From Escherichia coli (lineage in GTDB: Bacteria; Pseudomonadota; Gammaproteobacteria; Enterobacterales; Enterobacteriaceae): a stretch of 64,000 nt of DNA. Position 1 is the first letter of the stretch. The number at the start of each line of letters is the position of its first letter. This document shows, one piece after another, positions 6,995 to 18,523 of the stretch. The notes below the pieces were generated by a model that had not been told where the DNA came from, ran no database searches, and saw only the letters and a list, made by a program, of their open reading frames with translations. The position numbers and the translations under genes are program-made. Location of the stretch: the NCBI RefSeq assembly GCF_041886205.1, contig NZ_CP169029.1. One strand, 5' to 3'.

Positions 6995-7399
6995 ATGGAT
7001 CAGGTCGTTGTTTTTCAAAAGATGTTTGAGCAAGTGAGAAAAGAGCAAAACTTCTCCTGGTTTTATTCAGAATTAAAACATCACCGTATTGCACATTACA
7101 TTTATTATCTGGCTACGGATAACATCAGAATTATTACTCACGATGACACGGTTTTGTTATTAAGAGGAACCAGAAACCTGTTAAAAGTTAGTACGACCAA
7201 GAACCCTGCTAAAATAAAAGAGGCCGCATTGCTTCATATTTGCGGAAAATCTACATTTCGGGAATACTGCTCAACACTGGCAGGCGCGGGCGTTTTCCGT
7301 TGGGTTACTGATGTTAATCATAACAAACGCAGTTACTACGCCATTGATAATACGCTTTTATATATTGAAGATGTAGAAAATAATAAACCATTAATCTAG
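6995..7399 (+). CDS. ycgX: YcgX (DUF1398 family) protein
   Basis: 134-aa ORF; synteny. Confidence 0.7.
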   Translation: MDQVVVFQKMFEQVRKEQNFSWFYSELKHHRIAHYIYYLATDNIRIITHDDTVLLLRGTRNLLKVSTTKNPAKIKEAALLHICGKSTFREYCSTLAGAGVFRWVTDVNHNKRSYYAIDNTLLYIEDVENNKPLI

Positions 7400-7605
7400 C
7401 TAAAGTTGGATGCTTAAGAAATGCTTCATAATTCAGTAAGGCATTAGCATAATGGGAATAAAAGTGCAGAGACCATTCCTATGGTTCTAATACTGCCTTT
7501 TTATTGCCGCCCATAGATGTTCAGTACACCAATACTATAAAATTGATATTGAAATGTACTCCCTTGCTTATTGATACATTATTTTATACGGTTAGTTTGC
7601 TTTTA

Positions 7606-7633
7606 AAAACAACGGGCGTGCTATACGCCTGTT
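7606..7633. repeat. Second copy (26/28 identical) of the icd terminator hairpin sequence
   Basis: AAAACAACGGGCGTGCTATACGCCTGTT versus AAAACAACGGGCGTGTTATACGCCCGTT at 8897-8924. Confidence 0.7.
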
Positions 7634-7778
7634 TCATGGCTTAACCCATATTAATTTTGCTTTATTTTTCATCGCGTTATAAGTTTTTAACCAGCAACGA
7701 GTTATCCTTTACTATAAAGTTCAATAGTTGAGACCTTACCCTCATGTCATGCGTATATTCATTATAATGCTCCTTAGA

Positions 7779-7805
7779 CAAAAAAAGCCAACCATGATGG
7801 TTGGC
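7779..7805 (-). terminator. Intrinsic-terminator-like hairpin (GCCAACCAT/ATGGTTGGC) followed by a U7 tract on the minus strand; no annotated minus-strand gene upstream
   Basis: Seen in sequence. Confidence 0.4.
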
Positions 7806-8024
7806 AAAGTGGCACAAAGTAGCATAAAGGCTATGCTTTAATTACAGAAGGTTCAGTCATTTAAATGTATATCGTTTTATCTAAACAGAACTAAAACGAA
7901 GTGAATGATTTCACTTTTCCACTAAATCTCATTTTGTTTAATCTCTGTTGAGATTCCTTGCTTTAAATTTTGTTTTATAAAACAGTAGCTTTATTTTTTA
8001 ATTGATTTTTAGGTAATATAAAAA

Positions 8025-8279
8025 ATGCAAAATCAAGAAATGAATATCCAAATTAAACTATACGCTTATTTAAATAAATATGACACTCGCCTTACAGAAG
8101 AAAAAATTGCGATTGATAAAGCTATTAGAGAATTACATTTTAGCAGCGAGCATGTTGATAACAAAAAAATAATACTGAAGTTACTTTCATTTTTATCATA
8201 TACAGATGATGTTGTTGAAAAAGACATTATCAGAAATACATTGGAAGTGGTTCTTCTTTTTACTTCCGATGATATTTAA
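8025..8279 (+). CDS. AriR/YmgB-family paralogue (84 aa)
   Basis: C-terminal half KIILKLLSFLSYTDDVVEKDIIRNTLEVVLLFTSDDI parallels Ari[39 protein letters not shown] in this same window. Confidence 0.6.
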   Translation: MQNQEMNIQIKLYAYLNKYDTRLTEEKIAIDKAIRELHFSSEHVDNKKIILKLLSFLSYTDDVVEKDIIRNTLEVVLLFTSDDI

Positions 8280-8522
8280 TTGGATTCACTAACTTTATTA
8301 TCAAAATTATTGTCCGAACACTACCTTTCTTACTTATGTTTAATAATAATCACTGCGAATGAGGGGCGCACAACTATATTTTTCTCACACCTGTGATGTA
8401 AAAACACGAGAAAATCCAAATAAAGAACAACATTTGCAATTCCCACCAGATGGATTGCATCACACTTTATTATTCAAAATATTTATCAGCATCATTAAAA
8501 GCCGAAGGATAAGACAAAACAA

Positions 8523-8846
8523 ATGAAGTGGATAGTAATTGACACGGTAATTCAACCTACATGTGGTATATCTTTTTCAGCCATATGGGGTGATATGAAA
8601 ATGATCATCTGGTATCAATCTACTATATTTCTCCCTCCTGGTAGTATATTTAAACCGGTTAAATCTGGTATTATCCTTAAAGATAAAGAATATCCTATTA
8701 CTATTTATAACATCGCACCATTCAACAAGGATTTATGGAGTCTACTCAAAAGCAATCAAGAGTGTCCTCCAGGAGAAAGCAAAATAACAAATAAATGTTT
8801 GCATAATAGTTGCATTATAAAAATATGCCCATATGGGCTCAAGTAA
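8523..8846 (+). CDS. iraM: IraM anti-adaptor protein (RpoS stabiliser)
   Basis: 107-aa [26 protein letters not shown]...; position next to icd. Confidence 0.8.
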
Positions 8847-8896
8847 AGGGTTTAATATAAATATGCTCGATATGCTATTAATAATACCTACATAAA

Positions 8897-8924
8897 TAAA
8901 ACAACGGGCGTGTTATACGCCCGT
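8897..8924 (-). terminator. icd intrinsic terminator (hairpin AACGGGCG...CGCCCGTT followed by a U-rich tract on minus strand)
   Basis: Seen in sequence 25 bp downstream of icd stop. Confidence 0.65.
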
Positions 8925-8948
8925 TGCAATATTAAACACATGTAGTGA

Positions 8949-10199
8949 TTACATGTTCTTGATGATCGCATCACCAAATTCTGAACATTTCAGCAGTTTA
9001 GCGCCTTCCATCAGACGTTCGAAGTCATAGGTTACGGTCTTGGCGTTGATTGCGCCTTCCATACCTTTAACAATCAGGTCTGCGGCTTCAATCCAGCCCA
9101 TGTGGCGCAGCATCATCTCAGCAGAGAGGATGATAGAGCCAGGGTTTACTTTGTCCTGACCGGCATATTTCGGCGCAGTACCGTGGGTGGCTTCAAACAG
9201 GGCGCATTCGTCACCGATGTTTGCGCCAGGGGCGATACCAATACCACCAACCTGCGCTGCCAGGGCGTCAGAAATGTAGTCACCGTTCAGGTTCATACAG
9301 GCGATAACATCATATTCAGCCGGACGCAGCAGGATCTGTTGCAGGAACGCATCAGCGATCACGTCTTTAATGACGATCTCTTTGCCGGTATTCGGGTTTT
9401 TAACTTTCAGCCACGGGCCGCCGTCGATCAGTTCTCCGCCAAACTCTTCACGCGCCAGCTGGTAGCCCCAGTCTTTAAACGCGCCTTCGGTGAACTTCAT
9501 GATGTTGCCTTTGTGCACCAGGGTCACAGAGTCACGATCGTTAGCAATTGCGTATTCGATCGCTGCACGAACCAGACGTTTGGTGCCTTCTTCCGAACAC
9601 GGCTTAATACCGATACCGCAATGTTCCGGGAAGCGAATTTTCTTCACGCCCATCTCTTCACGCAGGAATTTAATCACTTTCTCGGCGTCGGCAGAGTCAG
9701 CTTTCCATTCGATACCCGCATAAATGTCTTCCGAGTTTTCACGGAAGATAACCATATCGGTCAGTTCAGGGTGTTTAACCGGGCTTGGAGTGCCCTGATA
9801 GTAACGTACCGGACGCAGGCAGATGTAGAGATCCAGTTCCTGACGCAGGGCAACGTTGAGAGAACGAATACCGCCACCAACCGGAGTGGTCAGCGGGCCT
9901 TTAATGGCAACGCGATATTCACGAATCAGATCAAGGGTTTCAGCAGGCAGCCAGACATCCTGACCATAAACCTGTGTGGATTTTTCACCGGTGTAAATTT
10001 CCATCCAGGAGATTTTACGCTCGCCTTTATAGGCTTTCTCGACTGCAGCGTCGACCACTTTCAGCATGGCTGGGGTTACATCTACACCGATTCCATCACC
10101 TTCAATGTAAGGGATAATCGGATTTTCAGGAACGTTGAGTTTGCCGTTTTGCAGGGTGATCTTCTTGCCTTGTGCCGGAACAACTACTTTACTTTCCAT
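8949..10199 (-). CDS. icd: Isocitrate dehydrogenase (NADP), native C-terminus with no e14 junction
   Basis: 416-aa [41 protein letters not shown]... Confidence 0.97.
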
Positions 10200-14849: not shown

Positions 14850-16223
<1,374 letters not shown>

Positions 16224-16313
16224 ACCTCGTATCAGTGCCGGATGGCGATGCTGTCCGGCCTGCTTATTAAGATTATCCGCTTTTTATTTTTTCACTTTAC
16301 CTCCCCTCCCCGC

Positions 16314-16331
16314 TGGTTTATTTAATGTTTA
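16314..16331 (+). promoter_or_regulatory. PhoP box direct repeat (TGGTTTA-TTTAA-TGTTTA) in phoPQ promoter
   Basis: Matches (T/G)GTTTA-N5-(T/G)GTTTA consensus; about 60 bp upstream of phoP. Confidence 0.7.
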
Positions 16332-16391
16332 CCCCCATAACCACATAATCGCGTTACACTATTTTAATAATTAAGACAGGGAGAAATAAAA

Positions 16392-17063
16392 ATGCGCGTA
16401 CTGGTTGTTGAAGACAATGCGTTGTTACGTCACCACCTTAAAGTTCAGATTCAGGATGCTGGTCATCAGGTCGATGACGCAGAAGATGCCAAAGAAGCCG
16501 ATTATTATCTCAATGAACATATACCGGATATTGCGATTGTCGATCTCGGATTGCCAGACGAGGACGGTCTGTCACTGATTCGCCGCTGGCGTAGCAACGA
16601 TGTTTCACTGCCGATTCTGGTATTAACCGCCCGTGAAAGCTGGCAGGACAAAGTCGAAGTATTAAGTGCCGGTGCTGATGATTATGTGACTAAACCGTTT
16701 CATATTGAAGAGGTGATGGCGCGAATGCAGGCATTAATGCGGCGTAATAGCGGTCTGGCTTCACAGGTCATTTCGCTCCCCCCGTTTCAGGTTGATCTCT
16801 CTCGCCGTGAATTATCTATTAATGACGAAGTGATCAAACTGACCGCGTTCGAATACACCATTATGGAAACGTTGATACGCAATAATGGCAAAGTGGTGAG
16901 CAAAGATTCGTTAATGCTACAACTCTATCCGGATGCGGAGCTGCGGGAAAGCCATACCATTGATGTACTGATGGGACGTCTGCGCAAAAAAATTCAGGCA
17001 CAATATCCGCAAGAAGTGATTACCACCGTTCGCGGCCAGGGCTATCTGTTCGAATTGCGCTGA
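16392..17063 (+). CDS. phoP: Response regulator PhoP
   Basis: 223-aa [19 protein letters not shown]... Confidence 0.97.
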
Positions 17064-18523
17064 TGAAAAAATTACTGCGTCTTTTTTTCCCGCTCTCGCT
17101 GCGGGTACGTTTTCTGTTGGCAACGGCAGCGGTAGTACTGGTGCTTTCGCTTGCCTACGGAATGGTCGCGCTGATCGGTTATAGCGTCAGTTTCGATAAA
17201 ACTACGTTTCGGCTGTTACGTGGCGAAAGCAATCTGTTCTATACCCTTGCGAAGTGGGAAAACAATAAGTTGCATGTCGAGTTACCAGAAAATATCGACA
17301 AGCAAAGCCCCACCATGACGCTAATTTATGATGAGAACGGGCAGCTTTTATGGGCGCAACGTGACGTGCCCTGGCTGATGAAGATGATCCAGCCTGACTG
17401 GCTGAAATCGAATGGTTTTCATGAAATTGAAGCGGATGTTAACGATACCAGCCTCTTGCTGAGTGGAGATCATTCGATACAGCAACAGTTGCAGGAAGTG
17501 CGGGAAGATGACGACGACGCGGAGATGACCCACTCGGTGGCAGTAAACGTCTACCCGGCAACATCGCGGATGCCAAAATTAACCATTGTGGTGGTGGATA
17601 CCATTCCGGTGGAGCTAAAAAGTTCCTATATGGTCTGGAGCTGGTTTATCTATGTGCTCTCAGCCAATCTGCTGTTAGTGATCCCGCTGCTGTGGGTCGC
17701 CGCCTGGTGGAGTTTACGCCCCATCGAAGCCCTGGCAAAAGAAGTCCGCGAACTGGAAGAACATAACCGCGAATTGCTCAATCCAGCCACAACGCGAGAA
17801 CTGACCAGTCTGGTACGAAACCTGAACCGATTGTTAAAAAGTGAACGCGAACGTTACGACAAATACCGTACGACGCTCACCGACCTGACCCATAGTCTGA
17901 AAACGCCACTGGCGGTGCTGCAAAGTACGCTGCGTTCTCTGCGTAGTGAAAAGATGAGCGTCAGTGATGCTGAACCGGTAATGCTGGAGCAAATCAGCCG
18001 CATTTCACAGCAAATTGGCTACTACCTGCATCGTGCCAGTATGCGCGGCGGGACATTGCTTAGCCGCGAGCTGCATCCGGTCGCCCCACTGCTGGACAAT
18101 CTCACCTCGGCGCTGAACAAAGTGTATCAACGCAAAGGGGTCAATATCTCTCTCGATATTTCGCCAGAGATCAGCTTTGTCGGTGAGCAGAACGATTTTG
18201 TCGAGGTGATGGGCAATCTGCTGGATAATGCCTGTAAATATTGCCTCGAGTTTGTCGAAATTTCTGCAAGGCAAACCGACGAGCATCTCTATATTGTGGT
18301 CGAGGATGATGGACCCGGTATTCCATTAAGCAAGCGAGAGGTCATTTTCGACCGTGGTCAACGGGTTGATACTTTACGCCCTGGGCAAGGTGTAGGGCTG
18401 GCGGTAGCCCGCGAAATCACCGAGCAATATGAGGGTAAAATCGTCGCCGGAGAGAGCATGCTGGGCGGTGCGCGGATGGAGGTGATTTTTGGTCGCCAGC
18501 ATTCTGCGCCGAAAGATGAATAA
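17063..18523 (+). CDS. phoQ: Sensor histidine kinase PhoQ
   Basis: 486-aa ORF; ATGA overlap with phoP. Confidence 0.97.

Follow-up and report, generated by a model that had tools for sequence, protein, structure and literature searches.

The PhoP box of the phoPQ promoter P1 in an Escherichia coli chromosome segment

The purB-phoP intergenic region and its PhoP box

We analysed a 64-kb stretch of Escherichia coli DNA, hereafter the window, in which a preliminary description had placed a PhoP box upstream of phoPQ. The site lies in the 168-nt purB-phoP intergenic region of the E. coli chromosome, downstream of a 456-aa ORF that is named purB in the RefSeq annotation of identical DNA and whose stop codon occupies 16221-16223. 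Over 5 kb the window is 98.9% identical to K-12, which together with the absence of the e14 prophage marks it as a non-K-12 strain, and the segment 16200-16420 is 100% identical to K-12 MG1655. The features of the region are as follows.

16237..16259, + strand: REP-like G+C-rich hairpin 3' of the purB stop codon, a terminator-like upstream boundary of the promoter region
16296..16324, + strand: candidate core of promoter P2, with -35 TTTACC (16296-16301), a 17-nt spacer and -10 TATTTA (16319-16324)
16315..16331, + strand: PhoP box, with direct-repeat half-sites GGTTTA (16315-16320) and TGTTTA (16326-16331) and TTTAA between them
16331, + strand: transcription start of the constitutive promoter P2, -61 from the ATG and the last A of the PhoP box
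16332..16343, + strand: 12-nt spacer between the box and the -10 hexamer, CCCCCATAACCA
16344..16349, + strand: P1 -10 hexamer CATAAT, a 5/6 match to TATAAT
16356, + strand: P1 transcription start, -36 from the ATG, PhoP-dependent according to PMC3536696 (coordinate computed)
16356..16391, + strand: 36-nt phoP 5' leader, with Shine-Dalgarno sequence GGGAG at 16379-16383
16392..17063, + strand: phoP CDS, 223-aa response regulator (ORF and RefSeq annotation of identical DNA)
17063..18523, + strand: phoQ CDS, 486-aa sensor kinase, its start overlapping the phoP stop codon (ORF and annotation)
16331..16674, - strand: antisense RNA AsphoP (K-12 b4843), with its 5' end at 16674 inside phoP and its annotated 3' end at 16331

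A hairpin equivalent to that at 16237-16259 precedes the box in other genera. An Rfam search of the phoP region gave no family matches; far downstream, the RNase E 5' UTR element rne5 (60841-61177, + strand) and the sRNA SraB (58812-58980, - strand) matched at gathering score.

Positions 16314-16331 of the window read TGGTTTATTTAATGTTTA. The preliminary description had placed these 18 bases exactly, the box proper being the 17-mer that starts at 16315; the T at 16314 is flank, and its inclusion accounts for the seven letters given there for the first half-site. The consensus for the PhoP box is (T/G)GTTTA-N5-(T/G)GTTTA, with the hexamers exactly 5 nt apart (Kato et al. 1999, as quoted in PMC5775216), and we searched both strands for it with the pattern KGTTTANNNNNKGTTTA. 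GGTTTA-TTTAA-TGTTTA matches this hexamer-N5-hexamer arrangement with 0 mismatches, bearing out the consensus match claimed at the outset. This was the single exact match in the window, against 0.04 expected, and any exact match occurred in 4 of 100 dinucleotide-preserving shuffles of the window. At up to 2 mismatches we obtained 26 matches against 15.4 expected, a near-chance figure that leaves the exact site as the one that stands out and makes relaxed matches hardly informative. We therefore rejected the latter as PhoP sites, with the exception of a cluster near 7.9 kb. No second box was found at up to 2 mismatches in 16200-16400.

The cluster at 7.9 kb has features of its own. At 7935-7969 (+ strand), a 1-mismatch box (TGTTTA-ATCTC-TGTTGA) is followed after 12 nt by TAAATT, which is the geometry of the architecture I promoters described below. 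This box lies 73 nt before a gene of the YmgB/AriR family, followed by iraM (genes 8025-8279 and 8523-8846), and four more 2-mismatch matches are clustered at 7882-8011. iraM has been reported to be PhoP-dependent. Of the 5,426 E. coli genomes, just 10 cover the 2-kb arrangement to at least 80%, K-12 being diverged here. The e14 prophage is absent, with an intact icd (from 8949, - strand) directly adjoining iraM, the ariR-like gene and ycgX (window 7000-9000); a location of the cluster within lit, a gene of e14, was rejected, as BLAST shows the window to be without e14.

Geometry places the phoP box in a promoter. Like phoP, it is on the + strand, and its half-sites point toward the -10 hexamer, which begins 12 nt farther downstream. 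The distance to phoP, previously put at about 60 bp, is exactly 60 nt from the end of the box to the ATG at 16392. At the -35 position (16-18-nt spacing), hexamers match TTGACA at merely 2 or 3 of 6 bases. A sigma-70 consensus scan of 16150-16450 returned no promoter at P1 or P2 and one weak match inside purB; such a blank is what an activator-dependent promoter should give and does not count as counter-evidence.

P1 is the proximal phoP promoter, activated by PhoP and giving rise to a 36-nt leader (Coornaert et al. 2013, PMC3536696) that is the target region of the sRNAs MicA and GcvB (PMC3536696). Its positive regulation by PhoP is also described in PMC3750022. In the window the start base, 16356, is an A located 7 nt after the -10 hexamer. 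PhoP binding, PhoP and Mg2+ dependence and both start sites were taken from the literature, the starts of P1 and P2 and the PhoP dependence coming from later papers that cite Kato et al. 1999 and Minagawa et al. 2003.

Among PhoP-activated promoters, architecture I is defined by a single direct-orientation box located 12 nt upstream of the -10 hexamer, over the -35 position (Zwir et al. 2012, PMC3335776), and its members are mgtA, phoP, yrbL, slyB, pmrD, as well as orgB (PMC3335776). The site in the window has a single direct box, a 12-nt spacing where 11-12 nt are required, a box that covers the -35 position and a poor -35 hexamer. Judged by its sequence, phoP P1 here matches this definition in every respect and is thus a classic architecture I promoter. 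Such promoters are predicted to be of class II, and independence of alpha-CTD has been shown for mgtA (PMC3335776); by analogy with mgtA, where it was demonstrated, PhoP would make a class II contact at phoP P1 as well.

Published data bear on the very sequence. The PhoP box of Shigella flexneri phoP has been printed as tGGTTTAtttaaTGTTTAc (Lin et al. 2018, PMC5775216), a 19-mer identical to window positions 16314-16332. A gel shift of the Shigella phoPQ promoter fragment by phospho-PhoP was obtained in the same work, and autoregulation was reported (PMC5775216). In Salmonella, deletion of the PhoP box of the phoP promoter prevented growth in low Mg2+, and conservation of the box across ten enteric species appears in a supplementary figure (Perez et al. 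2009, PMC2650801). A comparison with the published phoP P1 promoter had been proposed with the preliminary description; when run, it showed identity with K-12 MG1655 and with the printed Shigella box.

The second promoter, P2, overlaps the box. P2 is constitutive and forms a two-promoter layout with P1, which is activated by phosphorylated PhoP (PMC3750022). A P2 construct covering 'nts -61 to +30' was made with a primer whose 3' end is acccccataaccacataatcg (PMC3536696 Fig. S3), and P1 stays responsive to phosphorylated PhoP after loss of the P2 -35 hexamer and the part upstream (PMC3750022). The candidate P2 core was placed from the P2 start, and its putative -10 hexamer falls within the PhoP box. 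The coordinates of AsphoP were converted from the K-12 annotation and Table 1 of PMC9600491, the window differing slightly from K-12 elsewhere. Its annotated 3' end (K-12 1,190,508) is the same base as the P2 start and the end of the box, 16331. This coincidence would be in keeping with a duplex sensitive to RNase III whose limit is set by the 5' end of the P2 mRNA.

Conservation of the box in E. coli and across the Enterobacterales

The purB-phoP intergenic region occurs in 5425 of the 5426 complete genomes of E. coli, and a 61-nt core running from the P2 -35 hexamer to the P1 start was found in 5424 of the 5426. Roughly half of the matching records have this core unaltered, and most others differ at one position. 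Two common polymorphisms, seen among aligned loci L123-L125, L127 and L128, explain most of these one-position differences: one additional C in the run of C just upstream of the box (16310-16313; O157:H7 and others), and a C-to-A change at 16341, within the 12-nt spacer. The box and the -10 hexamer are unchanged in 10 of 10 aligned Escherichia sequences, a spread drawn from the 5,426 E. coli genomes.

A few E. coli records stand apart. Strain P276M (L126, NZ_CP044293.1) carries a 9-bp deletion (ACCCCCATA), equivalent to 16331-16340, that shortens the spacer from 12 to 3 nt. The deletion leaves the box intact and is predicted to inactivate P1; P276M gives the weakest core-promoter match of the 5,426 genomes, and this could be an assembly error. 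In NZ_OY754834.1 the intergenic match begins only at query position 72 (window ~16295) and falls in two places on the record, which suggests that DNA was inserted or rearranged immediately 5' of the P2 -35 hexamer. Plasmid-labelled records in the E. coli collection contain eleven of the matches to the phoP promoter region.

For the wider comparison, phoP loci were found by a degenerate pattern for PhoP residues 5-16, with one genome per species, which yielded at least 120 loci; this coding-sequence anchor was chosen so as not to presuppose the box. All of these loci are phoP orthologues, with PhoP 74-100% identical and phoQ downstream wherever the locus reaches. For the same reasons we rejected the idea that phoP loci devoid of a box are paralogues; insertions explain the missing box. 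Among the 109 loci listed with 200 nt available upstream, 44 have a perfect box, and in 42 of them it ends 59-63 nt from the ATG. Boxes at this distance number 49 at up to 1 mismatch and 56 at up to 2, the species being related, so that the counts do not represent independent events. Shuffled upstream regions gave, for a box anywhere, 0.0001 perfect matches per locus, 0.0022 at up to 1 mismatch and 0.028 at up to 2.

We then profiled the 57 box-anchored loci listed. The -10 hexamer 12 nt past the box is nearly invariant (A in 53/57, A in 57/57, A in 52/57 and T in 56/57), and conservation extends to the start region and first ~15 nt of the leader. The 24 nt that precede the box show no conservation, at no more than 0.65 bits per column. 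Selection of the loci on the box inflates the box columns of this profile and does not affect those of the -10 hexamer and leader. Two further elements are conserved though consensus-free: spacer positions 10-12 of the box (A, A, T; 16321-16326 region), kept in 45-48 of the 57 species listed, and the (T/C)CCCC directly 3' of the box (16332-16336) in the same alignment. Their retention may stem from a PhoP preference that is wider than the consensus, from the P2 -10 hexamer or from both.

These data bear on whether the box might be a chance match in an A+T-rich intergenic region, with no regulatory role. The exact matches in 4 of 100 shuffled windows, and the 26 matches at up to 2 mismatches that make such resemblances common, speak for chance. 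Against it, the site is located where one is expected, at exactly 12 nt from a -10 hexamer; it recurs at the same position in dozens of the species listed while the flanks have diverged; it is unchanged in all E. coli variants aligned; and binding data have been published for the identical sequence (PMC5775216). We regard coincidence as extremely improbable and retain the assignment as the PhoP box of P1.

Some loci depart from the standard arrangement. In Yersinia spp. (L004, L014, L025, L082), a perfect box is located ~63 nt upstream of a gene inserted between purB and phoP, which codes for an outer-membrane beta-barrel protein of 207-221 aa (Pfam OMP_b-brl), and no perfect box adjoins phoP in these four loci. 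In Y. ruckeri (L101) the inserted gene is present, and no box was found at up to 1 mismatch. Klebsiella/Raoultella and relatives (L048, L088, L116, L119) have a variant box, TATTTA-ACAGC-(T/C)GTTTA, 60-62 nt from the phoP ATG, which is kept although purB and phoP are 1.6-4 kb apart.

Conservation might also have been imposed mainly by P2, the sequence being kept as its -10 hexamer and start with the likeness to a PhoP box secondary. The P2 start and the likely P2 -10 hexamer do overlap the box. However, the most conserved columns are the GTTTA of both half-sites, the second of which is downstream of any P2 -10 hexamer, and the distance from the box to the P1 -10 hexamer is fixed at 12 nt. Moreover, what reappears ~63 nt upstream of the inserted gene in Yersinia is a perfect box and not a P2-like sequence (PMC2650801). 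We consider it very unlikely that P2 is the main cause of conservation, and PhoP-dependent activation of P1 is the preferred explanation.

A prophage family at P1 in other genera

Loci devoid of a box were found in Citrobacter werkmanii, C. braakii, C. gillenii, C. portucalensis and C. youngae ATCC 29220, and also in Lelliottia nimipressuralis strain 51 and Enterobacter genomosp. O (integrated genome loci L003, L029, L038, L041, L069, L077, L099 and L122). In these loci, a gene for a 429-aa tyrosine recombinase (Arm-DNA-bind_2 and Phage_integrase domains) ends 73 nt before the phoP ATG, and purB was not found up to 12 kb upstream. They match their relatives that have a box from (C)ATAATCAGCGTTAAACTATT on, and no farther upstream.

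A scan of IMG/VR for the 20-mer (C)ATAATCAGCGTTAAACTATT returned 47 viral contigs (L130-L176), many of ~40 kb. In 47 of 47 the integrase gene ends 28 nt before the core, and none of these 47 integrase-side contigs contains a PhoP box. The far end of the prophage was located by a second scan, for the box followed by TCCCC. Contig IMGVR_UViG_3300014641_000023 has the integrase-core-phoP junction at one end (L156) and the far junction at the other (L202). In the latter, a terminator hairpin of the purB type is followed by GGTTTACGAAATGTTTA, then by 12 nt of spacer and by CATAATCAGCGTTAAACTA, which runs into phage DNA. The same far junction was present on four more contigs, with the 3' end of purB visible (far-side loci L202, L186, L188, L189, L190 and L209).

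The junctions at both ends of IMGVR_UViG_3300014641_000023, together with those on the four further contigs, indicate that the attachment core corresponds to the P1 -10 hexamer, the +1 and the first leader bases. This att core is ~18 bp long and reads CATAATCAGCGTTAAACTA in the sister genera. The E. coli equivalent is CATAATCGCGTTACACTA, at 16344-16361, and differs from the sister genera at three positions, one of which is a one-base deletion. The E. coli site is unoccupied, as an unbroken match spanning 80% or more of the core promoter was obtained in 5423 of the 5426 genomes, and the attachment site of the window itself is unoccupied too.

A prophage family, ~40 kb where complete, thus sits in phoP P1 of the Citrobacter freundii-complex, Enterobacter and Lelliottia. 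Lysogens have the PhoP box and P1 still adjacent to purB and directed into the prophage, and phoPQ keeps just the -10 hexamer and leader, behind phage DNA. We put forward tentatively, as a possibility that falls short of our favouring it, the whole reading in which the att site splits P1, so that PhoP autoregulation would be lost or rewired in lysogens and a promoter responsive to PhoP and low Mg2+ would be acquired by the phage. A single consistent gene driven by the displaced P1 was considered and rejected, the far-end neighbours varying among variants and often converging on the promoter. A sequenced phage with the same integrase, from which attP could be read, was also sought, the best match being only ~50% identical and of the Rac IntR type. 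A literature search of incomplete coverage, which carries no implication of novelty, gave nothing relevant on phoP/purB as a prophage integration site.

Shorter insertions of 0.9-2.2 kb, which appear as remnants, are found in Enterobacter cloacae DSM 26481 (L031), E. cloacae M-7 (L117) and E. quasihormaechei (L046). They take the place of exactly the 33 nt that contain box and spacer, with the purB terminator hairpin on one side and the P1 -10 hexamer on the other, and no direct-orientation box is left in the three loci. A reverse-orientation box with 1 mismatch is located ~165-180 nt upstream of phoP in L046 and L117, and farther in L031.

Autoregulation of phoPQ and comparison with known systems

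We identify the site, with near certainty, as the PhoP box of P1, the autoregulated promoter of the E. coli phoPQ operon. The present analysis showed directly the sequence and geometry of the site, that it is unique in the window and that it is conserved. The feature is real, conserved, already known and fully described. The preliminary description had identified it with the known autoregulated phoP promoter, and sequence, position, orientation and spacing all agree with the published E. coli phoPQ P1; our corrections are merely cosmetic, namely the start of the box at 16315 and the overlapping constitutive P2, which had gone unmentioned.

In the standard model, which our data support, PhoQ, once activated (e.g., by low Mg2+), would phosphorylate PhoP, and a dimer of phospho-PhoP would bind both direct-repeat half-sites at 16315-16331. 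As the box takes the place of the missing -35 hexamer, 12 nt upstream of CATAAT, bound PhoP would recruit sigma-70 RNA polymerase in a class II manner. Initiation at 16356 would then yield phoPQ mRNA with its 36-nt leader, and the extra PhoP and PhoQ would close a positive feedback loop. Basal expression would be provided by the overlapping constitutive P2.

PhoP might in addition play a dual role, with phosphorylated PhoP activating P1 and occluding P2, so that activation would exchange P2 for P1 instead of simply adding P1 to it. This possibility extends the main explanation and does not replace it. The P2 start is the last base of the box, and the only plausible P2 -10 hexamers (TATTTA at 16319-16324 and TTTAAT at 16321-16326) fall within it. 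The retention of A, A and T at spacer positions 10-12 (45-48 of the 57 species listed) points the same way, as does the design of experiments in which just the P2 -35 hexamer and upstream part were cut, keeping P1 intact (PMC3750022). Nevertheless, the literature consulted calls P2 constitutive, with no PhoP repression reported (PMC3750022), the spacer conservation could equally represent the sequence preference of PhoP itself, and the candidate P2 hexamers are weak and placed indirectly. Any effect of PhoP on P2 is one that we infer, and we consider occlusion of P2 rather doubtful. The explanation that we favor remains activation of P1 by PhoP bound to the box.

PhoPQ controls Mg2+ homeostasis, resistance to antimicrobial peptides and polymyxin, acid resistance and virulence in enteric bacteria, and the site described here underlies its positive feedback. 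For the window itself little is at stake, as this is a textbook regulatory site placed to the base. The by-products of the analysis could matter more: the base-exact overlap of an activator site with a constitutive start, and a prophage that splits a promoter. If the interpretation of the latter holds true, its presence in Citrobacter and Enterobacter species of clinical relevance would mean that strains possessing and strains lacking PhoP autoregulation occur in nature.

The closest known system is the P1/P2 region of phoPQ in E. coli K-12 (Kato, Tanabe and Utsumi 1999, as represented in PMC3536696, PMC3750022 and PMC5775216). The whole intergenic region of the window is identical to it; the box, the 36-nt leader and the -61 P2 start are all alike, and there is no difference at the site.

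The phoP promoter of Salmonella enterica (Soncini et al. 1995; PMC3335776) likewise has a single direct box 12 nt upstream of the -10 hexamer and is subject to positive autoregulation. In S. enterica subsp. arizonae (L068), the box GGTTTATTAACTGTTTA ends 62 nt before the MRVL-aligned ATG. The box spacer is TTAAC in Salmonella and TTTAA in the window, and the gap to the ATG is two nucleotides longer in Salmonella. The 'surge' dynamics of the feedback reportedly differ between Salmonella and E. coli as well (PMC7808668).

In Yersinia, the y1795-phoPQ arrangement is autoregulated through a perfect box at a similar distance from the start codon (Perez et al. 2009, PMC2650801). The box there is 0.76-0.9 kb from phoP, before the inserted gene, whereas that of the window is directly before phoP. 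The arrangement that we found reproduces the one described by Perez et al. 2009 (PMC2650801) in further Yersinia species.

Finally, the boxes of mgtA, mgrB, slyB and yrbL, which belong to other architecture I promoters, follow the same consensus as the phoP box, are oriented in the same way and likewise lie 11-12 nt from the -10 hexamer. Those boxes drive effector genes, whereas that of phoP drives the gene of the regulator and overlaps a further promoter, which is constitutive.
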